Shown here in pieces: positions 27,460 through 63,610 of a stretch of DNA of 64,000 bases. Made by a program: the position numbers and the translations under genes. This DNA comes from a virus (taxonomy: Duplodnaviria; Heunggongvirae; Uroviricota; Caudoviricetes). Position 1 is the stretch's first letter, and each line of letters starts with the position of its first letter. The stretch is taken from positions 47,223 to 111,222 of the IMG/VR virus record IMGVR_UViG_3300000976_000008; one strand, written 5' to 3'. The notes below the pieces were generated by a model. The model did no database searches. It was not told the DNA's origin and worked only from the letters and a program-made list of their open reading frames with translations.

Positions 27460-27525
27460 ATCTCGTCCTGATGTGTCACCAATCCGAAATTTCACAGTGT
27501 TTTGCCTTAAACTACCGCCCTTAAG

Positions 27526-27851: not shown

Positions 27852-27856
27852 ATGAG

Positions 27857-28588: not shown

Positions 28589-28604
28589 CTAAAGTCTCCT
28601 TCAA

Positions 28605-34159: not shown

Positions 34160-34699
34160 TTAGACGTTTTCTTCCGGGTTTTCCAACCGCAAGAGATTCC
34201 TCTTAATATCTTGGCCCCAATGATATCCTCCAAGGCCCTTCTTGGGTACCACCCTATGACAAGGGATGATGAAAGCAACTGGGTTTGCACCACATGCTTG
34301 AGCAACTGCTCTATAGGATCTAGGAGACCCAATCATTTTAGCTATTTCACCATATTGAATGGTCTGACCCGGTGAGGTATTATCTATAGCCTTCCAAACC
34401 TTCATTTGAAAATCGGTGCCAGAAAGACCAACAGCCATATGTTGGAACAATCTACCTCTGCGTTTATTTGGATCAGCTATAGCCGCCGCAATAGCATCAC
34501 CCCAACTATCAAGCATGCGAGATTTTTCATGCGGAGCATTCGGAAACCGCTTCTCAGCTTCTTCCAAAAGAGAGGCTTCATCAGACCCAAAAAACAGATA
34601 TCGAACACCCATAATCATACCAATATGGACACCAAGCAGAGCTGGTCCAACAGCAGTATCAAAAAAGTTATACGTCATCAATGGTTTTGGAGTTAGCAC
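34160..34699 (-). CDS. Methylated-DNA-protein-cysteine methyltransferase (O6-methylguanine-DNA methyltransferase, MGMT/Ogt)
   Basis: The IPCHRVV active site and TDFQMKVWKAI...YGEIA...RAVAQACGANP helix-turn-helix are present. Confidence 0.85.
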   Translation of the reverse strand: MLTPKPLMTYNFFDTAVGPALLGVHIGMIMGVRYLFFGSDEASLLEEAEKRFPNAPHEKSRMLDSWGDAIAAAIADPNKRRGRLFQHMAVGLSGTDFQMKVWKAIDNTSPGQTIQYGEIAKMIGSPRSYRAVAQACGANPVAFIIPCHRVVPKKGLGGYHWGQDIKRNLLRLENPEENV

Positions 34700-43022: not shown

Positions 43023-43694
43023 TTAATTTTGTACGAATATCGAATCAGCATCGACATACGCACCAAAATCCTTCCAACGGCAGATATAGCACGGTGAAAG
43101 ATTCATAGAATGCATTACTTTATTTTTACTGGAGTGTGCAATATTCTTCGTGACTTCACCGCAAAAAGAGAAAGCGTTGAACGCTAAATGCGGAAACCAA
43201 ATATCCTTAGATTGATCCCAATTATCTGGAAGTGTAATCCCAGGTTTAGGTTTAATCGTGCCATCTAGAAATGGTTTCTGATCGACCGCAATCCAATCCC
43301 AACTTGGATTAGGTTTAAAAAATAATAATGGGAATTTATCCTTGCCAGTTTTGGTCGTCAACAAATGGGCATCATAACAAGTCTGGTGCCACCATTTTGT
43401 GAATTTCTGATTTCCGGCAGTATTACCTAGTAAACTATCGAAGCTGAAGCCTTTTTCCTTCTTGGCTTCAATAGCAAATATTATTTCTCCCTCAACAGGA
43501 ATGACGTCAGCAACACCTTCAACGACGGACACATCGTCGCCTCTCCCTTCAACTCTTCTCCGACGAAACTCTTTGCCCGACCATTCGCTCAAGAGTTTTT
43601 TCACACGCCTTTCGTGAGCTTTCGCGGTACTCACGTTAGATTTCCCAATCTTGGAAAATTTCTTACGTTGTTCTTCGGTCATTTCAGCCATCAT
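43023..43694 (-). CDS. Putative Hjc/restriction-endonuclease-like (PD-(D/E)xK) nuclease
   Basis: AHERRVKKLLSEWSG...GRGDDVSVV...ADVIPVEGEIIFAIEAKKEKG follows the G.ER...L...G...R.G..DV......E....IEVK pattern. Confidence 0.4.
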   Translation of the reverse strand: MMAEMTEEQRKKFSKIGKSNVSTAKAHERRVKKLLSEWSGKEFRRRRVEGRGDDVSVVEGVADVIPVEGEIIFAIEAKKEKGFSFDSLLGNTAGNQKFTKWWHQTCYDAHLLTTKTGKDKFPLLFFKPNPSWDWIAVDQKPFLDGTIKPKPGITLPDNWDQSKDIWFPHLAFNAFSFCGEVTKNIAHSSKNKVMHSMNLSPCYICRWKDFGAYVDADSIFVQN

Positions 43695-43710: not shown

Positions 43711-44475
43711 CTATATACTCCTTAATTTTGGATCAAATAACCATTGGACAAAACCGAGGCGTTCTCGACCATTGCTAGGTGTAACACTGTGATATGCAGG
43801 ATTATTCTGAAAATTGCATATGAATAATTTATTATATGATGGTATAATTTGATCTATCAGAATTAAATCATGCTCTTTACCATCTGGAAATCCACCACCA
43901 GGAGTCTTTGTGCGGATTCTATCATTCTCATTCAAGAAATCTAGTCTACCAGAAGGTGCCTCAAAAACAGGAGTATCAGGATTTGCATCATCAACTTTCC
44001 ATAACTGGAGTATGCCCCCATCATCCGAAAGCCACCTTTTATTGAAATAACAAATCGCCACAAGGGATCTGATAGTGCTATCCGTATGAATCCAAAATCC
44101 GTCTGCCATGGGTCGATGATAACGTAATTTGATTTCTGTGCCAATCGGTTCTTGTAATTCAGCACTAGTCAAATAACAACAGTATTCTTGCCATTCTTCA
44201 TTGTAGAATAATTCAGAACCAAAATGATTTTCTTGAGCGAATACAACAGACCCATCATATGGCAACAATGTTCCATCCTTGGTAATTCTATCGTTCGCTT
44301 CGCTGAATTTTAGAGTTTTATGCTGTTCAATTAATTGTTCTAGTTTTTCTTCTCGAAAGAAATCATCAAGAACAGCGTATTTGATTATTGGTTTTATGGC
44401 GATCGAATCACGAATCGATTCTACTACATGTGGGTCTAAATATTTAGGATTAACCCACTCATCTATTATCGCCAT
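43711..44475 (-). CDS. 2OG-Fe(II) oxygenase superfamily protein
   Basis: An HxD...H arrangement is present (WIHTDS ... PAYHSV), with surrounding double-stranded beta-helix fold hallmarks. Confidence 0.5.
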   Translation of the reverse strand: MAIIDEWVNPKYLDPHVVESIRDSIAIKPIIKYAVLDDFFREEKLEQLIEQHKTLKFSEANDRITKDGTLLPYDGSVVFAQENHFGSELFYNEEWQEYCCYLTSAELQEPIGTEIKLRYHRPMADGFWIHTDSTIRSLVAICYFNKRWLSDDGGILQLWKVDDANPDTPVFEAPSGRLDFLNENDRIRTKTPGGGFPDGKEHDLILIDQIIPSYNKLFICNFQNNPAYHSVTPSNGRERLGFVQWLFDPKLRSI

Positions 44476-45160
44476 GAAACTTACTCGCTTCTTTCCAATT
44501 ACTTATATGTGTCGGTATCTTAGCACCACCGGGAGTAAGACCTTTGAAATAATCCAGATCTTTTTTGTAATCAGGACGATTCCGTTTACGTCTCCATTCT
44601 TCATGCCCAGCCGGATATCCATCTATAAACTGCATTTCAGCAGCACCAGCAGAACCACGGTATAAGAAAATTTGAGCTATTGGTTGGCCCATGTAAACAG
44701 TAAAATCGCATGGTTGATTTAGAATGAAAACTAAACCAAAATGTCCAACATTCCACCATGCCTCTATCACAGCTTCCATACATGAAAAAGGAGTACACCT
44801 CTCATTGGGAATACCCTTCACATAAACGAAGTCACCGGGATCATCAGTTACTGGTATGAATTTAGCCTGAACAGTGAACCCACCGAAACTCGCATGATCA
44901 TCAACATCGTAGTGACTACTTTTCTCAATATGATGAATCACAGCACGGCGGTGCTTATCTCCATCCCATGTGACTCTGAAAGTTCCTGGTGATCTGATAT
45001 AATATCCTAAGCTATTGGCCATAATGAGCGGCAAACAATGGCGTGCATGGTTCTTGGTTGCTCTATTATCTTCAAACCACTTCTTGTTCCTTGTAGCTTT
45101 AATAGGAACCAGACTCTTGTCAAAATCTGGAGACAAATGGAATTTTATTTGATTACCCAT
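44459..45160 (-). CDS. Hypothetical protein, possibly a second cupin/oxygenase-like
   Basis: 233-aa ORF with HYDVDDH and later His residues. Confidence 0.3.
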   Translation of the reverse strand: MGNQIKFHLSPDFDKSLVPIKATRNKKWFEDNRATKNHARHCLPLIMANSLGYYIRSPGTFRVTWDGDKHRRAVIHHIEKSSHYDVDDHASFGGFTVQAKFIPVTDDPGDFVYVKGIPNERCTPFSCMEAVIEAWWNVGHFGLVFILNQPCDFTVYMGQPIAQIFLYRGSAGAAEMQFIDGYPAGHEEWRRKRNRPDYKKDLDYFKGLTPGGAKIPTHISNWKEASKFHGDNR

Positions 45161-46002
45161 TAAGCAAGCTTTTTGAATGGCGGAACTAGGTTAGGACCTT
45201 CTTGCATCATCCCATTAACCTTATATTTCATCGTAAGATCATTTATTTCTTTCGATGAAAAAGCCACTTCTTCAGCAAATTTCTTTTGAATATACAATCT
45301 ATTCGCTAAAAGTTTGGGACAAAGACTTAAATCAATAAGCAACATATTGAACCCGAAAGTTCTTCTGCCATTAGCCTTCAAGAATTTGTGTAATTCTCCC
45401 AGATCAGCCAACAATTTCGCACTCTTTTTAGGACCGATACCTTTATAACCGACAATCGAGTCCGCTTTATCGCCCACTAAAGATTTCTGCAGAACAGGAC
45501 TTATCGTCGGTGTTTCTACATCCTCTTTGCGATGTGGATGGTAGACTTTCGAACTTGAAAAACGAAAAGGAATCTGCGTCATATCACTATCAGTTGAAAC
45601 AATCACTGACGGATAAGGATGCAATTGCTCAACAGCGGAATAGATCAGATCATCCGCTTCCATCGTATCACGTGAATATTGCCTAACATTCATATGTTCA
45701 AGAAATTTCATTGCTACTTCGGTGGTTGACGATAGCTCTGCAGAAATGTCTTCGATATTAGGGTTATTATCTCTATCCTTATAAGTAGGATGTAACTTTC
45801 GTCTCCAAACAGTCTTTCTGGGTGCATCCCAAAAAACGTGCACAGAAACAGGATCATGAATTCTTATGAAACTTGTCAATTGACGAAGAAAGATCACAAA
45901 ATAGTGATATTTAACATCATATCGCCTATCATTCTTCGTAGCAAAAATAGCACGATACATGATATTTCTGGCATCGATTAACAAAGCTGGTCTAGCACTC
46001 AT
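45160..46002 (-). CDS. rnh: 5'-3' exonuclease / flap endonuclease (T4 RNase H homolog)
   Basis: LLIDARNIMYRA, EADDLIY, STDSDMTQI and the H3TH motif GYKGIGPKKSAKLL align to T4 RNase H ICLIDFSQIA / EADDHIA / SSDGDFTQL. Confidence 0.85.
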   Translation of the reverse strand: MSARPALLIDARNIMYRAIFATKNDRRYDVKYHYFVIFLRQLTSFIRIHDPVSVHVFWDAPRKTVWRRKLHPTYKDRDNNPNIEDISAELSSTTEVAMKFLEHMNVRQYSRDTMEADDLIYSAVEQLHPYPSVIVSTDSDMTQIPFRFSSSKVYHPHRKEDVETPTISPVLQKSLVGDKADSIVGYKGIGPKKSAKLLADLGELHKFLKANGRRTFGFNMLLIDLSLCPKLLANRLYIQKKFAEEVAFSSKEINDLTMKYKVNGMMQEGPNLVPPFKKLA

Positions 46003-46081: not shown

Positions 46082-47236
46082 TTAATCTTCGTCTTCAAGT
46101 TGCTCAAGCAGCGAAGCAATCTCGTCGGATTCTCCTTCGTCATCATCGCCAGATTCTTCGGCTAACTTCTCAGCGTCAGTTTTACCAGCTTCTTCTGCTT
46201 CTGGCTCTTCTTCAAGAGGAGTTTCATCTGCTAGAGAATCTCCTTCATCATCGGCAGCTGCTTTCTCAAGCTGATCTACCACATCGACGTCATCGTCTTC
46301 TTCAGCTTCGGTTTCTGCCTTCTTCTTTTCTTCAGCCTTCTTCTTTGCAGCTTTAGCCTTTGCTTCAGCCTTAGCTTCAGCTTTAGCCTTCTTCTCAGCA
46401 TCATCCTTCGTAGCAGTTTCATCCTCGTCGAAACCACCACTTTCATCTTCATCATCGCCATCGACCATCACACTGAAGAGTTTCTTAACCTTCACTGGGT
46501 CTGGCGTTTCGAGTTTGCTCCATAGATTGTGACGAAGCTTGAGAAGAGCAGAAAGTGCTTTCTTATTTGCAGCACCTTCGGAATCCTTCACCATTGGTTG
46601 ACCTTCGCCCCCATTAGCCAAGAATTTACTGGTCTTGTAACTGTTTTGTCTGCCTTGGCGGGAAACTTCCAGTTGGAACAAGAATCCATTATTCTCATCG
46701 AAGAAGACACCGTGTGCTTCTGGCTCTTCCGGATCTCCAGCATCTTCACGAAGAAGAGCAGCGGTCCACTTGTCAAAACAAGTCTTTGGTGCGTTATACC
46801 ATTTGACCTTACCTCGCAATTCTTCTGGATTTCCCTTCCAATTAGTGAAGTAGATGTTGGTAGCATAATACGTAGTCGGCATCCATGTTCGAATGATCTT
46901 GCTACGCACATCTTGGTCGCTTTTGTTCTCCTTCAAGAGATCAAAGCCAAATTGGCAAATTGGACATTCTTCACCATTCCACACGCGGGGACATGGGTGA
47001 GGTCTATCGTTTACCCAGTGGTTAGCGTGAGCGATGAAGAACTGATCCATGTCCTTCTCTACTTCACCACTCTTGAGAATATCACCATTCATCAAAGGCG
47101 GAAGAACAAAGAATCGATACTTGATTTCTTTATTGTCGTCTTTAGCCTTCGCTGGTTTGAACTCATCTGGGTCAGTGAATTTACCAGATTGTGATTGTTT
47201 CAGTTTCTTGCGAATTGCTTCTACATCGTAAGCCAT
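46082..47236 (-). CDS. gp32-type single-stranded DNA-binding protein (SSB)
   Basis: YRFFVLPP...FFIAHANHW...PCPRVWNGEECPICQ matches T4 gp32 RFLP...NHGF plus Cys-x-Cys-xx-Cys zinc ligands. KVKWYNAPKTCFDKW matches KVFKYRFGKKIWDKI. The C-terminal tail is long and acidic. Confidence 0.9.
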   Translation of the reverse strand: MAYDVEAIRKKLKQSQSGKFTDPDEFKPAKAKDDNKEIKYRFFVLPPLMNGDILKSGEVEKDMDQFFIAHANHWVNDRPHPCPRVWNGEECPICQFGFDLLKENKSDQDVRSKIIRTWMPTTYYATNIYFTNWKGNPEELRGKVKWYNAPKTCFDKWTAALLREDAGDPEEPEAHGVFFDENNGFLFQLEVSRQGRQNSYKTSKFLANGGEGQPMVKDSEGAANKKALSALLKLRHNLWSKLETPDPVKVKKLFSVMVDGDDEDESGGFDEDETATKDDAEKKAKAEAKAEAKAKAAKKKAEEKKKAETEAEEDDDVDVVDQLEKAAADDEGDSLADETPLEEEPEAEEAGKTDAEKLAEESGDDDEGESDEIASLLEQLEDED

Positions 47237-47313: not shown

Positions 47314-47877
47314 TTAAGTTGTTTTGTCAAATTCTTGTCGTTTACTGGCTGAAAGAGATCTACCTAAATCGGCTTTCATCTCCAATGCCTTGACTAGATG
47401 GTAAACCTTCCCAGTATGCATTTGCACTTTAGCAAGATTTTCTTCCAGTCTGATCAATTGGGAATCTTCTTCGACAACGACTTTGACTTGTTCGCCAGTA
47501 AGATTGACTCCCTCATCTTTCAATTTCTGTTTTATTTCACGTATCGCCTTTCCTTTCCGAATCTTAACAGCTTTTTCAAGAACTGCCACATTCATCCTAA
47601 GTTCAGAGTAAACCGCTGACCAGAACATATATTGAGTAGGAAGCTCTTCTAGCTGATACTCAACCAACTCCCTATCAAGAGCAAGTCCTGGCAACAAATC
47701 AAGTGTGATTGTCTTCGCTTTCTTGGTCTCAGGATCTTTCGTCCGAAGAGTAACTTTGAAAGTGAAAAGATCTGTACCCAAAAGTTCTTCAGGAATATTT
47801 TCCTCAGCCCAAAAGGGGAGGTCTAAATCTTTCTTTGGAACTTTATTCACCAGGTGGCTCCCAAGCATCTTTAACAA
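47314..47877 (-). CDS. Hypothetical protein at the position of T4 gene 59
   Basis: 187-aa ORF directly upstream of the gp32-like gene. I see no recognisable similarity to gp59. Confidence 0.35.
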   Translation of the reverse strand: MLKMLGSHLVNKVPKKDLDLPFWAEENIPEELLGTDLFTFKVTLRTKDPETKKAKTITLDLLPGLALDRELVEYQLEELPTQYMFWSAVYSELRMNVAVLEKAVKIRKGKAIREIKQKLKDEGVNLTGEQVKVVVEEDSQLIRLEENLAKVQMHTGKVYHLVKALEMKADLGRSLSASKRQEFDKTT

Positions 47878-48127
47878 ACCCAGTGGGTTTGGGCTTTTTA
47901 TTCAATACAGGCACTTTTTTAGCACCTGCCATAGCATTATTCGAATCAGGCGACATAGAAAAAGACCCCCGATCAAAAGTTGTTTCTTCAATATGTTCGA
48001 CTGGTTCAGTTTCCTCTGAAAGCATATTTCTCTTACTGGTCCGAAGCTTCAGACGTTTGATTCTCTTCAACTTCTTGGACGCTCGCCTTCTTTCCGCCTT
48101 CAGTTGTTTTTGCCTTTTTGCCGACAT
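47843..48127 (-). CDS. Small highly basic protein
   Basis: 94-aa ORF with a Lys/Arg-rich N-terminus. Confidence 0.3.
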   Translation of the reverse strand: MSAKRQKQLKAERRRASKKLKRIKRLKLRTSKRNMLSEETEPVEHIEETTFDRGSFSMSPDSNNAMAGAKKVPVLNKKPKPTGFVKDAWEPPGE

Positions 48128-49367
48128 GCGTCACGCCACTTTCTCGATAAACTCTAATTGTTTTCCATTTCTTCCATTTTCGACCCATACCCACTTTCAA
48201 CGGAAATGCAGGATTATCATCTAAAACGCCTTCAAAAGGATACAACATTATAGATGAAACTTTGTCAATTACCTTTTCCAGCAATTTCTCATCGGGTGGA
48301 CACGCCATAACAAGCGAGTCATGGATCTCAGCCACAATATATTGTGGATATATATCCCAAATGTGTCTTATACATAATTGCATAGCATGGGCCACAGAAC
48401 CTTGCATAGCACCATTCAACACAGCGAGAGCATTTTTAGCAAAAGCGAGTCGGAATCTGCGGTGCAACAAAGTTTCTAAAAATGCACCATCTTTGTTCAG
48501 TTTCTGCTTACATTGCCTAATCCATTTACCCAAACCAGGGTAGATGAAAGTCAAAGCATCACTGCTGAAGTCCATCGAGTTAATCGATTTCAACAAATAC
48601 GTCTTGCATTCATCTCTATCGATTTTCTCTTCAGATTCACTATTCAACTCTTCCATCATGAGTTGATATGGATCTGAAATTTCAAAAGCTCTCTGGAGTT
48701 GAGTATCACCAGATAGTAAGGATGCAACCCTAATATCAGCACAGATCCAGTCGAAATGGAGAAGTACCGCAGTATCACTCATACCAGTTGGTCGGATATT
48801 TGCTGGTTCAGAATATCCCTGAATGTTAAAACCAGTAGTTTTACTTCTCCCAGAAAAAGTTTTCTGTGACCAAATGGGTTTCCTATGAGAATAATTTATA
48901 AGAAGACCATGTCTCTCTAGATCCGCATAAACAAAAGCTGCACGAGCTAGAATCTTTTGATACTCGCAGAATGGTCTTTTTTCCATCCGCAGTATAGCAC
49001 CTCTAATAAAGGCATGGTCCTCTTGCCTAGATAGTAGAGTTTTGACATCGCCAAGGTGAATATCATAGACATCATAATCATGTTCATCCGGCAGATCAAA
49101 TGCCTTAATATGCGACATGAAGTCATTGATAACAATAGGCTTTGATTTCTTAGCTGCAGAAATCATCAATTTGCGAATAATCTTGATATTTTTAAAGATT
49201 TTCGCTAATGGTTTATTCTCACCAGATCTGTGAAATTCAACCAATATGATATCACCACCATCTTTAACACCAGCACAACGCGGTAATCCCGAATTGCGGT
49301 CAAACAGAGTAAAGATGTAAAGTGTTTCGTCCATGGTCTCGAATAACAAAACACAGCCGAGAACCAA
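48033..49367 (-). CDS. Minimal family-A DNA polymerase-like protein (palm/fingers only)
   Basis: LLHFDWICADIRV resembles motif A. RDECKTYLLKSINSMDFSS resembles motif B. IVAEIHDSLV resembles motif C (HDE). At 444 aa it has no exonuclease domain. Confidence 0.5.
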   Translation of the reverse strand: MVLGCVLLFETMDETLYIFTLFDRNSGLPRCAGVKDGGDIILVEFHRSGENKPLAKIFKNIKIIRKLMISAAKKSKPIVINDFMSHIKAFDLPDEHDYDVYDIHLGDVKTLLSRQEDHAFIRGAILRMEKRPFCEYQKILARAAFVYADLERHGLLINYSHRKPIWSQKTFSGRSKTTGFNIQGYSEPANIRPTGMSDTAVLLHFDWICADIRVASLLSGDTQLQRAFEISDPYQLMMEELNSESEEKIDRDECKTYLLKSINSMDFSSDALTFIYPGLGKWIRQCKQKLNKDGAFLETLLHRRFRLAFAKNALAVLNGAMQGSVAHAMQLCIRHIWDIYPQYIVAEIHDSLVMACPPDEKLLEKVIDKVSSIMLYPFEGVLDDNPAFPLKVGMGRKWKKWKTIRVYRESGVTHVGKKAKTTEGGKKASVQEVEENQTSEASDQ

Positions 49368-49406: not shown

Positions 49407-49919
49407 CTAAGTATCAGACTTCGGTGGCGGTTTCGAGACCACTTTATCGACAGCATCCTCAATAGTTTTACCCGTACGCGAACCGTAATGTCTCCTTTTG
49501 GAATTTCCATTACTATCATAACCATGTTGACCAGCTTTTTTCAACTTATTGTCAATATGATCGACTTCGCCAGGGACACGGTATTGGGCATATGGATCAT
49601 CGTTCGCCAATTTATGACGATTCATATCACGTTTCACACCGGCCTTATCAAGCCAGCCATATCCCTTAGTATATCCAGAGACTCTACACCCATACACAGT
49701 CTTAACTGCATTAGTGCTTTTACAGCGTGGGCACTCTGTGGCTTTCAGCAATTCTTCTTCAGTGGGAGACATTGGATGAGAAGTTTGAAAAAGAATCAAA
49801 CTCTCATACATCTCATCTGGTAATTGCCGATCACCAAAAGCATCCTCCGTGACATGCTCTGAATGTTTAGCGAATGCCGTTTCTTTGCAATCTAGGCATT
49901 CATAGTTATAATCGGGCAT
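49407..49919 (-). CDS. Zinc-ribbon protein
   Basis: Paired CxxC motifs: YECLDCKE ... CPRCKS. Confidence 0.35.
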   Translation of the reverse strand: MPDYNYECLDCKETAFAKHSEHVTEDAFGDRQLPDEMYESLILFQTSHPMSPTEEELLKATECPRCKSTNAVKTVYGCRVSGYTKGYGWLDKAGVKRDMNRHKLANDDPYAQYRVPGEVDHIDNKLKKAGQHGYDSNGNSKRRHYGSRTGKTIEDAVDKVVSKPPPKSDT

Positions 49920-49922: not shown

Positions 49923-50369
49923 TTATCCCTTATATGACTCCCACTCAATCTTACGATGTAATTTGCAAAGAGTGTTCTTCTCCGACATCAGAACAACTCT
50001 ATGCCCAGCGTAAGGTGGGCTATCGGAGGCGATTTCCATAATAACGTTCTTACCGAACATCACCACATCGCCAATTTCAAGTTGCGACTTGGTTCGACCA
50101 CCAGCATTATCCGGAAGACCGCATCCAACCCCAACAACAATTCCTTCATTCTTGTATTTAGATTCAGAATCTGGAACAACAATGCTCCCCGAATCATGTT
50201 CGAACACAAGAATAGCAACAAAATCATTCAGACATTCTACTTCGCGAATCTGAACAACTGATCTTGCGTTTGCTTCACCTTCCATTAGAGCAGATGGTGC
50301 GACTGGTGTATCAACTTCTTCCTGAGCATTCAATTTATCAGAGTGATGCTCATTTTGTGGTATAGTCAT
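49923..50369 (-). CDS. GroES-like co-chaperonin with an N-terminal extension
   Basis: GIVVGVGCGLPDNAGGRTKSQLEIGDVVMF...VVLMSEKNTLC resembles the GroES mobile-loop and roof region. This is functionally analogous to T4 gp31. Confidence 0.55.
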   Translation of the reverse strand: MTIPQNEHHSDKLNAQEEVDTPVAPSALMEGEANARSVVQIREVECLNDFVAILVFEHDSGSIVVPDSESKYKNEGIVVGVGCGLPDNAGGRTKSQLEIGDVVMFGKNVIMEIASDSPPYAGHRVVLMSEKNTLCKLHRKIEWESYKG

Positions 50370-50399: not shown

Positions 50400-50636
50400 C
50401 TACTCTTCAGAGTCTGGGGAAAGACTATGCATACCCTGAATCTCATCTATTTCATCCAACTCTACTATTGGATTTTCTATAAACCTAACGTTCGTCTTAC
50501 GTTTCGGCACCGAAGGTGAATTACCAACTTGTACTTGAAATCCGCTTCCATCTTTGGCTAATGTAAACCCAACTCTCTCGATAGTTTTCCGCACAGTTGG
50601 GGATACATCAACATCAATGGCGATTCGTAACTTCAT
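50400..50636 (-). CDS. Hypothetical protein
   Basis: 78-aa ORF. Confidence 0.3.
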   Translation of the reverse strand: MKLRIAIDVDVSPTVRKTIERVGFTLAKDGSGFQVQVGNSPSVPKRKTNVRFIENPIVELDEIDEIQGMHSLSPDSEE

Positions 50637-51973
50637 TACTCTTCTTTCACGTGCATCGTGTTATAATTGATTACACAATCGACTGTTTGATGCTTTGGAC
50701 CATTTCGGTTTTTAGCAATAAACATGCTCAATCGCGGTGGAGTAGCTTTTCTCTGCGAATCGTTCTGATTCAAACTGACAACATAATCAAGAGAGAATTG
50801 CTTTGCAAAACTCTCAGCAGCCTTTGATAAGTCAGCATATCCTTCTTCGGAAGCACCACTACGGTTAGTTTGGGTAGCAGTAAAAACAAGAACATTTTCA
50901 TTTTTGGCTAAACCACGCACTTCGTTAGCAACATGCTTTTGCCGTGTGTAGTCATCCTTATTATAATCAACATTTCTACTGACCATCAAATCCATATAAT
51001 CTAGGATAACAACATCCGGCTTGAAACCTTCTGTTCTTCTCAAATTATCCAGCAAAGCATAGATATGACTAACACTACATTCATCTGGTGGCCACTCAAA
51101 GATGACAAATCTCTTGTTGTACGTCCTCTTCATTTGTTCGACAACCCTATCGACATATGGTTGCCGATCCGCCAAATCGTTCAAAGGTACATCAGTACAT
51201 GCCGCACCAAGGCATCTCATAGCAGTTTTGAGTGTGTCAAGCTCGAAAGTGATTAGTAGAACATCTTGGCCAGGTGTCCCGTCGCGGCCAGTACCCTTCA
51301 ACGAGGATATAGCATTATTACACAACAGAATTGACTTACCAACGTTCGTAGCAGCAAGCCAGCATAAAACCTCTTTGGGAGAAGGACCGCCGTTATTTAG
51401 ATACTTATCAAGTTTGGCAAAACCTGTTGTGCGATGCTCGATAGCATCAGCTTCGAACAATATCTTATAATTATCAAGAAACCAGAAACCTTGTTGACCA
51501 ACATCAGCGATTCTATTCGCCTCATTAACGATAGAATCTAGTTGATCATAATCACCACGTGCATAAGCTTCTTGGGCTTCATCACCGAACAACAAACCAT
51601 AAGCTCTATCTTTCGCCCAGCGTAGGAGAGTTTCCTTAATAATAGGCACTTCTCTTGGATCAGATTGCTTTTCAACAAGCTCTAAGATTCGTTCCCAAGG
51701 GTCATCCTCAGTCATTGAACCAATTAAGCGATCACGTAGCAATGGTCTAGAAGGAACTACGCTGAATTTCTCAAAAGAATTCAGAACTTCAGCTATGATC
51801 CATCGGCATTCCAATGAGCCAAACATTTCCGGCTTCATGAAGCGACCAACAGATGTAAAAAACTCTGGGTGGTCTAAAGCAAGAGATATTATAGATTCTT
51901 CTTCATAAGGACCAAACGGTTTGATTTCGTCATCATCACCCAGTCCCTTTAATCTATCAAGCGTAGTCGCCAT
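50636..51973 (-). CDS. dnaB: Replicative DNA helicase (DnaB / T4 gp41 family)
   Basis: The C-terminal RecA-like domain has Walker A LAATNVGKS and a DnaB-type N-terminal helical domain. Its length of 445 aa fits the family. Confidence 0.85.
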   Translation of the reverse strand: MATTLDRLKGLGDDDEIKPFGPYEEESIISLALDHPEFFTSVGRFMKPEMFGSLECRWIIAEVLNSFEKFSVVPSRPLLRDRLIGSMTEDDPWERILELVEKQSDPREVPIIKETLLRWAKDRAYGLLFGDEAQEAYARGDYDQLDSIVNEANRIADVGQQGFWFLDNYKILFEADAIEHRTTGFAKLDKYLNNGGPSPKEVLCWLAATNVGKSILLCNNAISSLKGTGRDGTPGQDVLLITFELDTLKTAMRCLGAACTDVPLNDLADRQPYVDRVVEQMKRTYNKRFVIFEWPPDECSVSHIYALLDNLRRTEGFKPDVVILDYMDLMVSRNVDYNKDDYTRQKHVANEVRGLAKNENVLVFTATQTNRSGASEEGYADLSKAAESFAKQFSLDYVVSLNQNDSQRKATPPRLSMFIAKNRNGPKHQTVDCVINYNTMHVKEE

Positions 51974-52302
51974 TATCCGTCCAATGTGGGATTCTCACCA
52001 AGAATGCTAATTCTTCTCTGCCTGATGCTATCAAGCTGTCTTTGAGCATTCGCTTCAGCCAAAAGTAAAGCCTCGCCTAAATCGACGAATTCTGCCTCGC
52101 TGAATTGCAAAATAGCACCATTTACGCCAGAACCAAGATGATTCATCGGCCTCTGCATCGAGTTGACGTAAATCGTATAAGTCCAACCATTTAAGCCGCG
52201 AGTAACACCACTAATAGTCACGGCTTCCAGATGTCCTAGAGCTGCTGATTCTTTCAAATACAGAGTGTCTTTGACATCATACAATGGTGGTTCAATCGAC
52301 AT
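51973..52302 (-). CDS. Hypothetical protein
   Basis: 109-aa ORF lying between recA and dnaB. Confidence 0.3.
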   Translation of the reverse strand: MSIEPPLYDVKDTLYLKESAALGHLEAVTISGVTRGLNGWTYTIYVNSMQRPMNHLGSGVNGAILQFSEAEFVDLGEALLLAEANAQRQLDSIRQRRISILGENPTLDG

Positions 52303-53428
52303 CGTCTAAAATCTCCGAAGTATCAAGGGTAGACTCTTGGGGGATCTTTCTCCTATCCCTTGCTCTAGTTTTCTTCTCTTCAATTGCATCAAAAAGACCA
52401 GCGTATATTTGGTTCTTAAGCGTATTCAATGTCTCTTCGTCTTCTCTCAAAGCAGCAGCTGCCTTTGCTATGCCATTCCCCAAACTCTTACCATCAAGAC
52501 TAATAAAATTCCCCTTTCTAGTCAATATGTTGTATTCCAGACCAATATCTATAAATGATTGAACAGTATCAATCCCAGATACAGGATTACCACTATAGAT
52601 AAAGTATTCTGCCTCGGCAAAAGGCTTACCACCCACTTTGGTCTTAATAATCTTAGCCTTAGGACTAAATCCTTGTACCTCTCCGCCATCGTTAATTTTA
52701 GAGCCTTTGTTTACTTGAATCCTAACAGACGCAGCAAATTTCAATGCCTTGCCACCAGGAGTGGTAGTAGGATCACCAAACATCACTCCAATCTTTTCTC
52801 TAGTTTGGTTAATGAAGATCAAAGTGCATTGGTTCTTATTGACTTCTTTATATAATTTACGCATTGCTTGGCTCATCATGCGAGCTTGAGCACCGACATG
52901 ATGATCGCCAATTTCGCCTTCCAATTCAGCTTTGGGGATTAGTGCGGCAACAGAGTCAACCACAATGAGATCAACAAGACCACTAGCTGCCAATTTCTCA
53001 GCAATCTGCAGAGCCTGCTCACCATAATCTGGTTGCGAGAATAACAAATTGTCCCAATCAACACCAATCAACTGTGCCCAAGTAGGATCGACAGCATGTT
53101 CAGCATCAACAAATGCCGCAACCCCATGACGACCCTCTTCCCCTTTTTCTTTGAAGAAATGCTTCTGGCAAGATGCTACAATATGAAGACATAAAGTTGT
53201 TTTTCCACAGCTCTCCGTGCCAAATATTTCCATAATCCTGCCTTGAGGAACTCCACCACATCCCAAAGCTCTATCAAGAGAAGCAATACCAGATGGGAAA
53301 ACATCCACATCAACAATAGCTTCTGCACCCATAATAATAGAATTCTCGCCATACTGAGAATCTATTTGTTGTAATAGACCAGAAATAGATTCTGGTTTAG
53401 GAGCTTTCTTTTTTTGTGCTTTTGCCAT
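52292..53428 (-). CDS. recA: RecA recombinase (bacterial type)
   Basis: The protein is co-linear with E. coli RecA from SLDRALGCGGVPQGRIMEIFGTESCGKTT through AFVDAEHAVDP, SQPDYGEQALQIAEKLAASG, VVDSVAAL, AQARMMSQAMRKL and IFINQTREKIGVMFG. Confidence 0.95.
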   Translation of the reverse strand: MAKAQKKKAPKPESISGLLQQIDSQYGENSIIMGAEAIVDVDVFPSGIASLDRALGCGGVPQGRIMEIFGTESCGKTTLCLHIVASCQKHFFKEKGEEGRHGVAAFVDAEHAVDPTWAQLIGVDWDNLLFSQPDYGEQALQIAEKLAASGLVDLIVVDSVAALIPKAELEGEIGDHHVGAQARMMSQAMRKLYKEVNKNQCTLIFINQTREKIGVMFGDPTTTPGGKALKFAASVRIQVNKGSKINDGGEVQGFSPKAKIIKTKVGGKPFAEAEYFIYSGNPVSGIDTVQSFIDIGLEYNILTRKGNFISLDGKSLGNGIAKAAAALREDEETLNTLKNQIYAGLFDAIEEKKTRARDRRKIPQESTLDTSEILDDVD

Positions 53429-54287: not shown

Positions 54288-54526
54288 AACTCCGCCAAAT
54301 AACAGAAAATCTGTTAACACAACAGATGCGGGGCCAATTCCTAAAATCAAGCTCTTATGTCTACAGACCATTCCTAAGAGCAGATATGCTATATAATCCC
54401 CAAGGTGGTAGTGACTTTGGGACTAGAATAAATAGTAGCATATCGTCAGCATCTGGAGTCCCAACAAAACCCAGAAATAGGCAATATCTTGGAATGGAAA
54501 ATCGACCAGGGTCCATCAGACTCTAA
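54284..54526 (+). CDS. Hypothetical small protein
   Basis: 80-aa ORF coupled to the previous gene. Confidence 0.25.
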   Translation: MKLRQITENLLTQQMRGQFLKSSSYVYRPFLRADMLYNPQGGSDFGTRINSSISSASGVPTKPRNRQYLGMENRPGSIRL

Positions 54527-55344
54527 TAAGTCGAGATAAGTCCTTGCCCATCACATTTAGGGCAGTCTATCGTTTCACCAGCATTTTTCAGCCGACCGAC
54601 ACCACGGCACATTGGGCAATTAACCGTGGTGTTTGAATATCCATTCCTAGCAAAGTTTGGCACTTTATTTTGATGAATTGAGTCATCTGCCATCTTTTTG
54701 AAACGGTCTTGAAGAGTTCTATCATTTTCTTTATTTGAAACCCTAATGCGGGTTGTGCCGGTCCCATCCACACGCTTTTCTGGAATAGCAATAGGCATAC
54801 CTTCTCGTGCCTCAACCATCGCCATCTTAGCCTTGCCTTGCAATAATTCTGGCGACAAAACATCCTCATTACCTGATACAACATGAGAGCTATGGGAAGA
54901 AACAGCACCCATGGAGGTAGATCCACCCACAGATTGCATTCCAGAATTTCCGTCGATAACAGATGTCGATACTACATCAGGATCAGCAATATCCATGACT
55001 TCGCCTGACGGCGTTTTTGGAACCTCAGTTATAAGAGTTGGCGTAGGCTTTGGCGTTTCCGCTTTTTGCTCCTGAGGAGCCATAGTGACTAAAGAATTAC
55101 CACTAGCTGGTGCCAATTCAAAACCCATCGCTTTTGCTTGGGCTAAAAATTCTTCAACTTTCTTCTGTTTGACTATATATGCTTCTCGCACAGTCTTTAT
55201 AGTAGCATCTTCGGCATGCTCGTCGCAAATATCGACAGAAACTTTAGCATCATCAACAGTGATTATCATCTCATTGTTGAGATTACTTGTGGTCTCGCAA
55301 AATACACATTGTTTCATCATAATCCTCACAAACTCACAGAACAC
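54523..55344 (-). CDS. Zinc-finger protein with DnaJ-type CxxCxGxG repeats
   Basis: The N-terminus has CVFCE...CDEH. The C-terminus has CPMCRGVGRL...CPKCDGQG. Confidence 0.4.
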   Translation of the reverse strand: MFCEFVRIMMKQCVFCETTSNLNNEMIITVDDAKVSVDICDEHAEDATIKTVREAYIVKQKKVEEFLAQAKAMGFELAPASGNSLVTMAPQEQKAETPKPTPTLITEVPKTPSGEVMDIADPDVVSTSVIDGNSGMQSVGGSTSMGAVSSHSSHVVSGNEDVLSPELLQGKAKMAMVEAREGMPIAIPEKRVDGTGTTRIRVSNKENDRTLQDRFKKMADDSIHQNKVPNFARNGYSNTTVNCPMCRGVGRLKNAGETIDCPKCDGQGLISTY

Positions 55345-55394: not shown

Positions 55395-55826
55395 ATGACT
55401 AAAGTATCTATCATAGAAGTAGATCTCGGCTTACGCATCAGTGACATCATAAAAGATGACGTCATTGCTCTAACGGGTGCCGCACAAGTTCAATTGACTG
55501 AAGCGATTGCTGAAAGAAAACAAATCGAAAAGGTCAAAATAGAAAGATCCAATGCAAAAAAGAAAGCCAGCGACAAAATAGTAAATGCTCTCACAAAGGC
55601 ATATGAAGCATTAGAAGAAGCTGCAAAAAATGGTGATGGTGTAACCGTTGAAACAATTATGGAAATCATAGACGGAGCAGTACCAAATACTTCAGCATTC
55701 ACCTTAAGAATGAAAAAATTCCTGAAGGACAAAGACAACCCATATATGATCACTAGGAAGAAGATCTCAAAAGTGGCACATTATTTCTTTGAGGCTTTCA
55801 ACGAAGATCCTCAAGAATCGCCATAA
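55395..55826 (+). CDS. Hypothetical protein (opposite strand)
   Basis: 143-aa ORF. Confidence 0.35.
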   Translation: MTKVSIIEVDLGLRISDIIKDDVIALTGAAQVQLTEAIAERKQIEKVKIERSNAKKKASDKIVNALTKAYEALEEAAKNGDGVTVETIMEIIDGAVPNTSAFTLRMKKFLKDKDNPYMITRKKISKVAHYFFEAFNEDPQESP

Positions 55827-56167
55827 TAAATATTGTAATCCCAAAGGTCTTTCAAACCAGATTTGACAAGACACTCATAGATCGTACCTACAGCAATCTC
55901 ACCCATATTTCTCTGGCGTTTCACTTCAACGGCTGAAATCTTTAAAAGATCGCCGACATACATTATTCCAAGTTTCTCAAGAGCATTCGCAACTTTTGAC
56001 GGTATACCTATTCCTAGAGTAGATAGATTCTTTCTCTCAATAATTGTCATTCTTCGAATGGTATCATAATCTATAAATTCATTGCCCTGCTCTCGGGAGA
56101 TCTTCATCCCGTAAGTTTTAAATTCTTCAGGAAACAAATTGGAAGAATTATCTATTCGTTTTGACAC
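55811..56167 (-). CDS. RNA polymerase alpha-CTD-like helix-hairpin-helix protein
   Basis: LSTLGIGIPSKVANALEKLGIMYVGDLLKISAVEVKRQRNMGEIAVGTIYECL resembles E. coli alpha-CTD [42 protein letters not shown]. Confidence 0.4.
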   Translation of the reverse strand: MSKRIDNSSNLFPEEFKTYGMKISREQGNEFIDYDTIRRMTIIERKNLSTLGIGIPSKVANALEKLGIMYVGDLLKISAVEVKRQRNMGEIAVGTIYECLVKSGLKDLWDYNIYYGDS

Positions 56168-56921
56168 GTTTCTTGAAACCTTTTATCAGATCACAGATGA
56201 ATGTAATATCATCGAGAAAATCATTCTCAGATGGATCAGATATTGCCGTAACAAGATTTCCATATACAGAACTCACAGCAATTTTCCTGAATCCAGATTC
56301 AAAAGAAAGATCTGGACATAACTCTCCAAATACGGTCCTGCCTAGAGCAATCACTAATTTAGGCTGCAGAACATTCATCTCCATTTGCAAAAAAGGTTGA
56401 CACTGTTTCCTGTGAATGGCCTCCAACTTCTTAGAATAGCATTTAGCGACATTCGTTATATATAAATCATCGTTGCTTAACCCATTTTTCACTATCTCAG
56501 AGTGAAATGAACTATTAGCAAACGGGACACGTTGTTCAACTTCATCCCAACCAGGATTAAGGCCAACAACCATAAATTTAGAAATAGCAACATTACTGAA
56601 GATATGAGGATCTCTAAGATCATCCCCATTTTCAGCCATTTCCAATCCAAGGTCACACATAGAGCATGCGAGACATGTCTTAGACAATTGAAGTAGCATT
56701 CTAGATTTATGATCGTCAGCCGTTTGTTCAGATGGCAATTGCATGATGCTTATGAGTGTTGGTTCGGGAAAATTATATGCCTTATTATCGTGACCAAACC
56801 AATCGAAATTCCTAAGCTCCCTCAAAAGAGCTAAATCTCGCGGCGAAGGAGGTTCAGAAGGTGGCTTATTATCGTGCAAAAACTTCTTCGTCCTTTGCAC
56901 GTGACTAGCATATTTAGTCAT
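56148..56921 (-). CDS. Uracil-DNA glycosylase (UDG), family 4/5
   Basis: CLACSMCDL, VVGLNPGWDEVEQRVPF, SEIVKNGL, LYITNVAKC and LVIALGRTVF follow the family-4 UDG motif order. Confidence 0.75.
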   Translation of the reverse strand: MTKYASHVQRTKKFLHDNKPPSEPPSPRDLALLRELRNFDWFGHDNKAYNFPEPTLISIMQLPSEQTADDHKSRMLLQLSKTCLACSMCDLGLEMAENGDDLRDPHIFSNVAISKFMVVGLNPGWDEVEQRVPFANSSFHSEIVKNGLSNDDLYITNVAKCYSKKLEAIHRKQCQPFLQMEMNVLQPKLVIALGRTVFGELCPDLSFESGFRKIAVSSVYGNLVTAISDPSENDFLDDITFICDLIKGFKKRVKTNR

Positions 56922-60698: not shown

Positions 60699-60891
60699 GA
60701 CGATCAGCATAATCACTTGCAAGAGCTGCAAGATGTGGATTAGTAAAGACTCTTTCCGGTTCCAACGAGTCTGCATCCAAGATTGTTTTGGCGATTTCGC
60801 CTGTGGGCACGACATCACGCATCATCAAATAGAGGAAAGTTACTAGCTTACTTTTGCTCTTTATGTCGTTCTTTGTGGAGGAGTTTGACAA
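60673..60891 (-). CDS. Hypothetical small protein
   Basis: 72-aa ORF. Confidence 0.25.
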   Translation of the reverse strand: MSNSSTKNDIKSKSKLVTFLYLMMRDVVPTGEIAKTILDADSLEPERVFTNPHLAALASDYADRLIDEVDEV

Positions 60892-63610
60892 TTGTTTGAT
60901 TCCTTCTCATCGTAAAAGTGCCTCTCATCTCATCATAATCAACCCACATCTCAATCCCTGTACCAACTAATAGAGATTCAGGATTTTGCAAAGCTAATTC
61001 ATTGTTGAAAATGAGAACTAAGGCTGTTTGAACACCGTCACTAACAAATAACCTAGCATACTCTTTGTTATTCTTAGATACGGCGAATTCTAAATCAGTG
61101 ATCACAACTTCAAGTTTAACTCCGTCATACTGACCACCACGCTTCGCAGCATCAATATCACAATTACCCTGTGTGAGATAAAGATCAAGTGGTGAATGCA
61201 AATAGTAACCAAGATATTGCTTCTCAAAAGCCAGAGTCTCTTCTAAAGTGAATTCTTTGTCAGAGTAAAGACTGATCACATTATCTCTACTGTCATTTGG
61301 TTTTGGCTTCCAATTCTTGATCTTCGCAGGGATTTTGCGGCGATTTGGATATTGCTTCTTATACTCTGCCTCTTGCCGCTGCCTCTCCTCTTCAATTGTT
61401 GTTTCGTTCCAACCATCTTTTTCAACCAGTTTGGCCCTGATTTCTCTTCGAAGTTGAGTTATATCCTTGCCACTACAGTATTTATATTCATACCATTTCC
61501 AAGTCGCATAAATGTTCTCATGTCCTTCAAGAACAGTGAATGCACCAAGTTTGATAAACCTTTCAAGAACGGTTTTGCTCTTACCGCCCTTCTTTTCAAT
61601 AAAATCATCAATATCAGTAAAATCGCCACGCCCAGCAAAACTTTCGGCTGCACTTTCACCAATTCCTTTAATGCCGATCATCCCCTGATTCACAACATCA
61701 TTTGTAACAGTAAAGTCTGTCGTCAAATTGAAAATGTTGATAGTTCCAAAGACAACTGTATCAGCTGGCTTTTCAGGATTGTAAGATCCACTATATGTAA
61801 CATGATCAGTCGGTTTCCATTCTTCAGATCTAGCAATGCCCATATATCTTACTAGTTTATCCGAATGACAATCGCTCATGACAGCGGCCCACCACTCTGG
61901 AGCAAAGTGAGCTTTCAACCATAAACATCTCTGAGCAACTAAGCAATAAGAAACAGCGTGAGAACGATTGAACGCATAGCGACCAAATGTTTCCATCTTG
62001 GTCCACCAGTTCTCTGATTCTTTCTGTCCTAAAACTCTAGATGCACCAACAATCCAATGCTCTCTAATGGGTTTCAACTTATGAACCCATTTCTTAGCAA
62101 CAGCTTTCCTAGCCTCTTGTGCTTGTGGTGCGGTAAAACCAGCTACTCGTTGCCAAATTGCCTGCAATTGTTCCTGATAGACAATTACACCATAGGTATC
62201 CTTCAAAACATCCAATATCTTAGGATGTAATCGATTCTTCCAAGAATCCGATCCACCATCACGATTCTCTACAGCTTCCGGTATAGAAGCCATCGGTCCT
62301 GGGTGCCCCATAGCATTGAAAAGCATCAAATCTTCAAAGTTTCTAACCCCATTCGCCAAAATGCTCTTCGCCAGATCAGTATCAAATTGGAAAATACCAT
62401 CTGTTTTCTGTTCATTAGCAAGACGTAATGCATCTTCATCATTGAGACTAATATAATGCTTGTTGCCCTCTGAATCGAAAAAATGACCAGCCCTATTCAA
62501 ATTAGGATTAATATCGTCCCATCCAGTCATAGCTGGTGGTAGTTCCTGACCGTGTTCAGATTCAGATTCTTTTCTCTCACCAAACGTGATACCTCTATTT
62601 TGCTCAATAAGCCTGCAACACTCGAAGATATATTTAAGCGTTTTGAGGCCAAGAATATCCCACTTAATATAACCAAATTTTGAAAGCTGAGTGTTCCTAC
62701 CCTCGGACCACATGCTTACCCAATAACCTTTGTTGTTACTCTTGGCTAAAGGAATATTTCCGAACAAAGTACGATCAGCGATAATGAGGGCACCAGCGTG
62801 CATACCCATGTTTCGCACTCGACCAATGATCTGAACAGCATAATCTATAACATCTGGATATTTAGCAGTAAACGAGGCAAGTTGCTCATATTCAGCTATC
62901 AGCTTACCGATAGTCGGGCCATCTGTAGCTTCTGATTGACAATTTGGACATCTGACTTCATTGTGAGAAGTACCACATTCTTTATCTTCGCCATCGGTTT
63001 TGATGCGACCTTTACAATTTGAATAACCACCATCTTTCAAATCATCAACATCATCCGGCAATTTAGTTGTAAGCTCATAGGCTTCAGCCTTATCAACCAT
63101 ACCAGTGGCAACACAAACATCGATCACAGATGATTTGAATTTATATGTCTGCCACGTTCCGACAGAACAAACAGGCCCATACCCATCAGTTATGCCCATC
63201 CCATACTTCTCAGCAGCATAGGTTTTAATTGGGTCGCGAGCTTCAGGAAGACAGTCGAGATCAATATCCGGCATATCCGGATCTTTTACAAAGTCTGGCG
63301 GAACAACTCCGTTCCTTTCTCGATATTTAACAACTTCAGCAGCTTTGACAGTACAAAGAATCTCATCATCTCTACCACTAATCGGGTCACCTTCGGCCAT
63401 ACCAAGCAACCAAGGCAAGACCAAACTATTGGGATTTGATCCAAATCGCTTCTTATCGTTGTAGAGATTCAGCCAATATGTAGTAGCACCTTGCTTCTCG
63501 ATCTCCTTAAATTCAAACTTCAAGCGTTTTGCGTAAGTTTCATCTAAAGATCGACCGTCAAGCTCACCATTAGCAAGCTCTTTTAATTCTTCCCAAGTGA
63601 CGCTAGCCAT
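60848..63610 (-). CDS. DnaE-family (Pol III alpha-type, C-family) DNA polymerase catalytic core lacking the N-terminal PHP domain
   Basis: Aligned to E. coli DnaE: [25 protein letters not shown] ~ [38 protein letters not shown] ~ [26 protein letters not shown] ~ PDFDVDFC (catalytic Asp pair); [10 protein letters not shown] ~ [20 protein letters not shown] ~ Gx[20 protein letters not shown] ~ KMDFLGLRTLT. The ORF begins at the equivalent of about DnaE residue 290. Confidence 0.8.
   Translation of the reverse strand: [920 protein letters not shown]

Follow-up and report, generated by a model that had tools for sequence, protein, structure and literature searches.

A minimal, highly divergent family-A DNA polymerase homologue in a conserved replication and recombination cassette of uncultured large phages

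The gene described here lies on the minus strand of a 64-kb stretch of viral DNA (hereafter the window; positions 47,223 to 111,222 of the IMG/VR record IMGVR_UViG_3300000976_000008), which belongs to a phage of the class Caudoviricetes. The window represents about one sixth of the genome and matches a 408-kb public contig. The gene encodes a reduced family-A DNA polymerase homologue, hereafter named mini-PolA, and is surrounded by genes for replication and recombination proteins. A preliminary description of this DNA had proposed an open reading frame (ORF) at 48033-49367, with 444 aa counted from a TTG codon. This ORF is indeed present on the minus strand at that place, but its start is likely to be different. 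The 11 extra residues gained from TTG 49367 are found in no homologue, and ATG 49334 is the start in all close homologues as well as in the public gene call of the identical protein on the 408,349-bp contig. The coding sequence of mini-PolA is therefore likely to extend from ATG 49334 to the stop codon at 48033-48035 (48033-49334), giving a protein of 433 aa. Residue numbers in the following refer to this 433-aa protein, and Klenow equivalents are taken from alignments with Klenow and with a regular phage PolA.

Mini-PolA is a real and very divergent homologue of the family-A DNA polymerases. The Pfam hidden Markov model (HMM) DNA_pol_A (PF00476) matches the protein with 36.5 bits, above its gathering cut-off of 34.3 (E 3.7e-9), and a PHROGs search retrieved DNA-polymerase families. 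At the level of PDB sequences a profile was required, a phmmer search with the single protein giving nothing useful. The family profile, built from 120 homologues, retrieved 53 distinct sequences from the PDB, each a bacterial DNA polymerase I (best E 2e-7). Klenow, Taq and Bst were among them, the score for Klenow being only about 33 bits; in this search, no match at E<=1 was obtained for T7 DNA polymerase, Pol gamma or Pol theta. An AlphaFold2 model calculated from the 120-sequence alignment (mean predicted local distance difference test, pLDDT, 92; predicted template-modelling score, pTM, 0.90) and its Foldseek comparison with the PDB bear out a Klenow-type right-hand fold with fingers and palm. 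The structures retrieved were Pol theta, the apicoplast Pol, KlenTaq and Pol nu (E ~1e-14, probability 1.0). Hence, the family-A homology proposed in the preliminary description is upheld by an HMM match above the gathering cut-off and by a fold that agrees with it. Two other identities were considered and rejected. A T7-like RNA polymerase does not fit, since DNA_pol_A alone scored in the Pfam search, with no match to RNA_pol (PF00940), since the protein has 433 aa as compared to about 800-1100, and since the PDB profile matches are all DNA polymerase I. Mini-PolA is not a Pol I proper either, as it has no fused N-terminal 5'-3' exonuclease domain, the 5' nuclease being encoded by a separate gene at 45160-46002.

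According to the model and the alignments, mini-PolA has a complete palm and somewhat shortened fingers, a thumb reduced to a stub, and a vestigial exonuclease domain. The latter is the N-terminal domain (about 120 aa; 48975-49334), of the 3'-5' exonuclease or RNase H-like type. Residues 1 to ~120 form a confidently modelled beta-beta-beta-alpha-beta-alpha-beta-alpha domain, and the N-terminal 127 residues modelled alone reach a pLDDT of 88. The matches of this domain in the PDB are weak (best E 0.03) and uniformly RNase H-like or DnaQ-like: they include the exo-like domain of Pol theta (TMq 0.51, root-mean-square deviation 3.7 A over 95 columns), family-B exonuclease domains, RNase H and the arenavirus NP exonuclease. 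No DxE motif is found in the domain. A partial DEDD site considered in the close subfamily (D12, D71, D91 and D106) was rejected, these positions being unconserved in the wider family. Given the RNase H-like matches, the missing DxE and the unconserved acidic sites, the N-terminal domain is best regarded as a vestigial exonuclease. The polymerase had earlier been described as having neither an exonuclease nor any N-terminal domain; this holds as far as the DxE motif is concerned and fails for residues 1 to ~120, which form an RNase H-like remnant.

The thumb is reduced to two helices (residues 103-119 and 124-142; 48906-49028), which replace the ~137-residue N-terminal palm/thumb region of Klenow. 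Since position 151 of the profile aligns to residue 331 of the Klenow chain, mini-PolA has about 150 residues where Klenow has about 330. At the other end, the C-terminal 26 residues (48036-48113) are charged, unconserved and predicted to be disordered (pLDDT <50). A protein consisting of the palm only, as had first been supposed, is therefore not what is encoded: fingers carrying motif B and motif 6 are present, together with the two thumb helices and the exonuclease remnant.

The polymerase motifs follow each other along the protein, and the three segments quoted in the preliminary description are found where it had placed them. The TGR motif, TFSGR (48846-48860), contains R163, which the alignments equate with Klenow R668. 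Motif A, DWICADIRV (48726-48752), provides the metal ligand D195 (D705 in Klenow) and D200 at the position of the steric gate E710. In motif B, the O-helix RDECKTYLLKSINSMDF (48567-48617), R240, K244, L248 and N252 correspond to R754, K758, F762 and Y766. Motif 6, NGAMQGSVAH (48387-48416), carries N307 (N845) and Q311 (Q849). Finally, motif C, IHDSLV (48309-48326), contains H338 (H881), the metal ligand D339 (D882) and S340 in place of E883.

Conservation of these positions was followed in two sets of sequences: the 120 closest homologues (44-59% identity), and 210 distinct sequences, down to about 30% identity, that include members from IMG/VR and from the representative library. Both sets show invariance or near-invariance at R163, D195, R240, K244, N307, Q311, H338 and D339, so that the two metal-binding aspartates of motifs A and C, whose conservation the preliminary description had proposed to check, are kept across all 210 sequences or nearly so. 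Other positions depart from Klenow. Position 200, equivalent to E710, is Asp in 207 of the 210 sequences and Glu in 2. Position 340, equivalent to E883, is Ser in 182, Gly in 12, Ala in 8, Cys in 6 and Glu in 1. Position 248 (F762) is chiefly Leu, and position 252 (Y766) is divided between Asn (106 sequences) and Tyr (103 sequences). A reading of the change from HDE to HDS as a lesion of one gene is therefore not supported, with Ser, Gly, Ala or Cys in 208 of 210 members and Glu in a single one. In the sequences compared, Asp at the E710 position and Ser, Gly, Ala or Cys at the E883 position thus stand out as the hallmarks of the family. The Y766N change was also considered as a hallmark and was rejected, since half of the wider family keeps the Tyr and the Asn marks only the subclade of the window. 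T7 RNA polymerase likewise has IHDS in its motif C and works with two aspartates.

In all 19 described PolA clusters, the crucial catalytic residues are strictly conserved, and the equivalents of E710 and Y766 (positions A2 and B4) are residues that discriminate between dNTP and NTP (Czernecki et al. 2023, PMC10201439). At the equivalents of E710, Y766 and E883, mini-PolA falls outside these 19 clusters; these three positions are accessory and not metal-binding, and membership of the superfamily stands. Overall, the pattern of conservation makes an active polymerase very probable, one that would rely on the canonical pair of aspartates and that carries changes specific to the family at the third carboxylate and around the sugar pocket. 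Because the catalytic set is near-invariant across the family, mini-PolA is unlike a decaying gene. Of the two options raised at the outset for the HDS motif, a non-catalytic protein is thus contradicted by the near-invariance of these eight residues over 210 sequences, and a specialised role is the likely one.

Mini-PolA belongs to a large family. A search of 5.8 billion proteins gave 276 matches; among the matches listed, lengths ranged from 395 to 457 aa and almost all carried a precomputed PF00476 assignment. An exhaustive profile search of 1.84 billion cluster representatives retrieved 183 clusters at E<=1e-30, 209 at E<=1e-10 and 868 at E<=1e-3. Judged by these scores, the family stands apart, a sharp gap separating it from other PolA proteins. 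It comprises about 180-200 clusters at 50% identity, all from metagenomes; the sources include records of the Pacific Ocean Virome and Tara, and the contigs reach 408 kb. Among the INPHARED phages, megablast with the locus and tblastn with the protein found no relative, the only matches being to SPO1-like PolA proteins with E ~0.01. A fold search of BFVD retrieved regular PolA proteins only, at <=20% identity, and no close relative. A large sequence family can thus be defined; within the collections searched, none of its members is cultured, named or represented by a structure. Its carriers are widespread, uncultured and apparently marine jumbo phages.

The gene for mini-PolA is embedded in a cassette on the minus strand. 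In the direction of transcription, the window shows the C-terminal part of a DnaE-type polymerase, two unknown ORFs, a CMP-KDO-synthetase-like gene, a UDG gene, an ORF resembling the C-terminal domain (CTD) of the RNA polymerase alpha subunit, and a gene for an Anti-TRAP-like zinc protein. These are followed by the RecA recombinase (52292-53428), a 109-aa ORF, a DnaB-type replicative helicase (50636-51973), a 78-aa ORF, a GroES (Cpn10)-like protein (49923-50369) and a 170-aa Cys4 zinc-ribbon protein (49407-49919). Downstream of mini-PolA come a weakly UvsY-like recombination mediator (47314-47877; phrog_231, E 4e-4), a gp32-type protein that binds single-stranded DNA (SSB; 46082-47236) and a Pol I-type 5'-3' exonuclease or flap endonuclease (FEN; 45160-46002). 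The series ends with DUF6065, a 2OG-Fe(II) oxygenase and a PD-(D/E)XK / RusA-like nuclease.

This gene order is repeated on independent public contigs. Its conservation was measured in 75 IMG/VR loci obtained from a scan with the family profile (60 to 29% identity), in which neighbours were identified by local tblastn with the window proteins; misses are mostly due to short contigs. A gp32 gene is found near mini-PolA in 74 of the 75 loci, and DnaB in 70. The UvsY-like gene, the downstream neighbour, is also found in 70. RecA is present in 62 loci and FEN in 61, and the GroES-like gene is syntenic in 44. One divergent relative (L041:8347-9942) has an SF2 (ResIII/Helicase_C) helicase directly upstream of mini-PolA, replacing DnaB and the zinc ribbon.

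The zinc-ribbon gene was found in 67 of the 75 loci and there lies directly upstream of mini-PolA, usually 0-70 nt away. Its product carries a conserved C-terminal motif, RDM..L..DPY...R.PGE, and has 87 stand-alone homologues. Profile searches of the PDB, Pfam and the set of 5.8 billion proteins revealed no fusions and generic zinc-ribbon matches only. Homology to an OB fold or to a primase zinc-binding domain was not detectable, the best PDB match having E 0.28, and a similarity to cold-shock domains (E ~0.8) was discarded as being at chance level. Because of its position immediately upstream in 67 of 75 loci, the zinc-ribbon protein is a candidate partner of mini-PolA.

A second polymerase is encoded in the window, 11.5 kb from mini-PolA. 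It is the C-terminal part (920 aa; 60848-63610, minus strand; PF07733, PF17657 and HHH_6) of a split DnaE-type Pol III alpha subunit. The N-terminal part, of 472 aa (PHP domain and start of pol3_alpha), lies just past the end of the window. On the related contig L011, the whole arrangement spans 7033-12763. Between the two parts lie three small ORFs (160, 146 and 201 aa), the last of which overlaps the start of the C-terminal part and corresponds to the window ORF 63583-63987; the split may reflect a mobile insertion, an intron-like element or an enzyme truly made of two subunits. In 19 of the 75 loci, the most divergent among them, DnaE is seen at the upstream edge. After two further DnaE scans, DnaE and mini-PolA were found on the same contig in at least 30 of the 75. 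These loci suggest that mini-PolA and DnaE are paired throughout the phage group, even at about 30% identity. The co-occurrence of family-A and family-C polymerases in one phage, as first proposed, is thus confirmed and extends beyond the window. The unexplained large ORFs examined in six loci yielded no other polymerase, and the window ORFs of at least 90 aa include no primase, clamp, clamp loader, DnaQ or family-B polymerase. The earlier statement that the phage has no gp43 is consistent with this last result and is valid for the 64-kb window only.

Several neighbouring genes have features of their own. The gp32-type SSB (46082-47236, minus strand) ends in a low-complexity tail of ~130 residues rich in Lys, Ala, Glu and Asp, far longer than the acidic tail of T4 gp32. 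The Anti-TRAP-like zinc-binding region forms the C-terminus of a 273-aa protein (54523-55344, minus strand), whose gene is upstream of RecA in 49 of 75 loci. The alpha-CTD-like ORF encodes 118 aa (55811-56167, minus strand), matches PF03118 weakly and is syntenic in related contigs. DUF6065 and the 2OG-Fe(II) oxygenase form a pair directly downstream of FEN (43711-45160, minus strand); of the 75 related loci, 16 gave a tblastn match to the oxygenase and 11 to DUF6065, and the pair might serve to modify nucleic acids or nucleotides. In two related phages, RecA contains a LAGLIDADG intein (L049:3170-5416 and L054:5008-7230), and free-standing LAGLIDADG and HNH endonuclease ORFs occur in the window at 9214-10008 and 20086-20700 (minus strand).

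The remainder of the window is also informative on the phage. It encodes on the minus strand an unusually rich repair set, namely UDG (56148-56921), a DenV-like pyrimidine-dimer glycosylase (22190-22549), an Ogt-like O6-methylguanine-transferase DNA-binding domain (34160-34699) and the PD-(D/E)XK / RusA-like nuclease (43023-43694). An array of 14 tRNA genes (Met, Ile, Leu, Val, two Arg, Gly, Gln, Thr, Pro, Asn, Ala, Phe and Glu) with small interspersed ORFs spans 14904-28675 on the minus strand. A gene for a T4 gp15-like tail-sheath stabiliser (2763-3641, minus strand) indicates a contractile-tailed myovirus. It adjoins an 818-aa ORF (3-2456, minus strand) that runs off the start of the window and has no Pfam match.

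The closest published parallel is divPolA1, a divergent PolA with a conserved palm, a truncated thumb and an inactivated exonuclease (Yutin et al. 2024, Virol J 21:200, PMC11348598; preprint PMC11188092). It was reported in 2024 as an extra minimal PolA of 14 phages and adjoins genes for SSB, RecA, 5'-3' exonuclease and DnaB (Yutin et al. 2024, PMC11348598). Both proteins have about 430-440 aa, a conserved palm, a truncated thumb and an inactivated 3'-5' exonuclease. Both are carried by large myovirus-like phages that also have a regular polymerase, which in divPolA1 phages is of family A, B or C. Both are accompanied by an SSB, RecA, 5'-3' exonuclease and DnaB cassette with GroES/GroEL nearby, although the gene order differs. 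In contrast, the motifs are DYDAFHLR and YDA in divPolA1 and DWICADIR and HDS in mini-PolA, the genomes of mini-PolA phages reach ~400 kb, and their other polymerase, wherever detected, is DnaE. The cassette proteins shared with divPolA1 phages are only 21-35% identical.

In the Flavobacterium phage immuto_3-5A, gene 1 encodes a 441-aa 'DNA polymerase family A' and is followed by two small ORFs, SSB, RecA, 5'-3' exonuclease and DnaB; the regular 777-aa PolA of this phage adjoins GroES/GroEL, 38 kb from gene 1. Homologues of the immuto protein are found in the Microcystis phage Mel-JY01, where a cassette of similar kind is annotated around the divPolA1-like gene, and in the 484-kb uncultured phage LR756508. 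The sequence comparison covered these three proteins. Mini-PolA had no BLASTP match to any of them, and HMM searches in both directions gave less than 7 bits, equal to regular PolA. With hhalign, mini-PolA aligned to the divPolA1 profile with E 1e-3 and 16% identity over 287 columns; the E value against regular PolA was 0.059, a figure not strictly comparable since that target was a single sequence. Hence, the comparison with PolA-like genes of large phages, to which the preliminary description had pointed, gives a likeness in architecture and context, while no specific sequence similarity to these three proteins was found. On this evidence, mini-PolA is best described as a sequence-distinct auxiliary minimal PolA of large phages and is not assigned to divPolA1. 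Its origin may lie in a very deep branch of that lineage or in a parallel reduction.

Other family-A enzymes share some features with mini-PolA. Bacterial Pol I (Klenow, Taq, Bst) is the best PDB sequence match and has the TGR, A, B, 6 and C motifs in the same order, and Taq likewise has a dead exonuclease domain. In mini-PolA, however, the exonuclease remnant covers ~100 aa as compared to ~190, most of the thumb is gone, E710, E883 and Y766 are replaced by Asp, Ser and Asn, and the Pol I-type 5' nuclease is encoded nearby as a separate gene. Pol theta, Pol nu and the apicoplast Pol, the top Foldseek matches, align over inactive or small exo-like domains and polymerase domains, and Pol theta and Pol nu also lack proofreading. 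These three enzymes are nevertheless only 12-15% identical to mini-PolA, much larger, and have full thumbs, lineage-specific inserts and an intact HDE. The split T7-like PolA of the S-SBP1 type (Czernecki et al. 2023) is also a phage PolA product without an active exonuclease domain. In that case a recent fission has left the exonuclease to an adjacent gene and the enzyme acts as the replicase, whereas the exonuclease remnant of mini-PolA is degenerate and no complementary exonuclease gene is adjacent. Lastly, the CcPol-MP or PolA-SSB primases of SCCmec and other Bacillota elements (Bebel et al. 2020; Rice 2023) are N-terminally truncated PolA proteins encoded beside a helicase and a small conserved partner, as is mini-PolA. 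They differ in that the helicase is a D5/COG3378 or DUF927 protein on an integrative element and not a DnaB in a jumbo phage, in that the partner is an OB-fold protein where mini-PolA has a Cys4 zinc ribbon with no recognisable OB fold, and in that the polymerase domain is close to housekeeping Pol I whereas mini-PolA is very divergent. An identification of mini-PolA as a CcPol was rejected, as its helicase is of the DnaB type and it shows no specific similarity to CcPol.

How might such an enzyme serve the phage? In bacteria that replicate with Pol III, Pol I performs primer removal, gap filling, and patch synthesis in repair and recombination. Pol I combines a PolA polymerase domain with a 5' nuclease, and its proofreading domain is dead in some species. 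With a probability of about one half, we propose that mini-PolA and the separate FEN act as a 'split Pol I', that is, a polymerase for gap filling, Okazaki-fragment maturation and recombination that works with FEN while DnaE is the replicase. Direct observation covers the membership of the family, the fold, the lost domains, the conserved catalytic residues and synteny, and the presence of DnaE on the same contigs, whereas catalytic activity, low processivity and fidelity, and a division of labour with DnaE and FEN are inferred. Mini-PolA would be an active, proofreading-deficient DNA-dependent DNA polymerase, probably distributive because of its stub thumb, and it belongs to a fixed cassette with RecA, DnaB, the zinc-ribbon protein, the UvsY-like mediator, the gp32 SSB and FEN. 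The DnaE-type family-C enzyme, encoded 10-16 kb from the cassette, would be the processive replicase. Together with FEN, mini-PolA would fill gaps and replace the RNA primers of the lagging strand; it would also carry out short-patch synthesis after recombination by RecA, UvsY and gp32, and after base excision by UDG and the DenV-like glycosylase. The presence of a polymerase and a 5' nuclease in one cassette, the stub thumb, the lack of proofreading, and PDB sequence matches restricted to bacterial Pol I argue for this role. Several points weigh against it. The E883 carboxylate of motif C is lost, and the changes at or near the sugar pocket (E710 to Asp throughout, Y766 to Asn in the subclade of the window) could mean that substrate choice differs from that of Pol I. 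FEN is not adjacent in six loci (L055-L057, L059, L060 and L067). In the immuto phage, the extra polymerase occurs together with a full-length PolA that could fill gaps, which suggests a role of mini-PolA that does not depend on the type of replicase. It is also the minimal polymerase, and not the regular one, that has the conserved replication context (Yutin et al. 2024, PMC11348598). Lastly, the replisome is only partly known: no clamp, clamp loader, primase or ligase was seen in the window.

The position of the gene within a helicase, recombinase and SSB block in nearly every locus would also suit a polymerase of the core replisome or of recombination-dependent replication, which would extend D-loops made by RecA, UvsY and gp32 behind DnaB and leave DnaE as an exchangeable or auxiliary enzyme. 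The divPolA1 relatives lend some weight to this idea, as their regular polymerase varies (A, B or C) around a constant cassette. We nonetheless consider it rather unlikely: a thumb stub and the absence of proofreading are ill-suited to copying a genome of at least 400 kb, and DnaE stays with mini-PolA down to ~30% identity, so that it does not look exchangeable here. An enzyme of low fidelity or altered substrate, for translesion synthesis, for tolerance of ribonucleotides or modified nucleotides or even for RNA synthesis, is in our view unlikely. It would agree with the lack of proofreading, with Asp for the steric-gate Glu in 207 of 210 sequences and Asn for Y766 in half, with structural neighbours (Pol theta and Pol nu) that are translesion or repair enzymes, and with the many repair genes of the window. 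Yet the steric gate is still a carboxylate, half of the family retains the canonical Tyr, no RNA-polymerase domain or Pfam RNA_pol match is found, and a housekeeping role, more than a damage-specific one, is suggested by the tight linkage to helicase, SSB and FEN.

Mini-PolA, with the adjacent zinc-ribbon protein and/or gp32, might form a family-A-based primase or initiating polymerase coupled to DnaB. Such an enzyme would replace DnaG, act on gp32-coated DNA unwound by DnaB, possibly owe a relaxed sugar selectivity to the E710D, E883S and Y766N changes, and represent a second, independent invention of the CcPol-MP principle. The gene follows directly after the helicase, the usual place of a primase. 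The zinc-ribbon gene immediately precedes it in 67 of 75 loci, there are altered residues in or close to the sugar pocket, and no DnaG/Toprim or AEP domain was found in the 64-kb window or in the 9 kb beyond it. CcPol-MP itself provides a precedent, as an N-terminally truncated PolA that can prime when a small ssDNA-binding protein is bound to it (PMC7581432, PMC10061031). However, only about one sixth of the genome is seen and a primase may be encoded elsewhere, as in the immuto phage, whose DnaG primase lies far from its mini-PolA. The zinc-ribbon protein has no detectable OB fold, primase zinc-domain homology or fusion, and mini-PolA shows no specific similarity to CcPol, whose polymerase domain is near housekeeping Pol I. 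We hence hold a priming role to be improbable. Finally, the loss of E883 and the decay of thumb and exonuclease might suggest a catalytically dead relic kept as a structural or DNA-binding subunit. This is highly improbable, since the residues contacting the metals, the triphosphate and the primer terminus are invariant over ~200 clusters, which is unexpected for a dead enzyme.

The finding is solid but moderately surprising, as a similar class was published in 2024 and bacteria share the division of labour between family-C and family-A enzymes. What is new is a large uncharacterised family with its hallmark substitutions, the putative partnership with a zinc-ribbon protein, the conserved cassette and the co-occurrence with a split DnaE. 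As a natural 433-aa PolA without most of the thumb and without the third carboxylate of motif C, mini-PolA is a test case for the minimum that a family-A polymerase requires and a compact scaffold for enzyme engineering. If priming or ribonucleotide acceptance were true, its interest would be much greater. The family extends the idea of an extra minimal PolA, put forward in 2024, to a second, sequence-distinct and much bigger lineage in which the partner polymerase, wherever detected, is of family C. Overall, mini-PolA is a fixed part of the replication cassette of widespread, uncultured and apparently marine jumbo phages that would replicate with a split DnaE.

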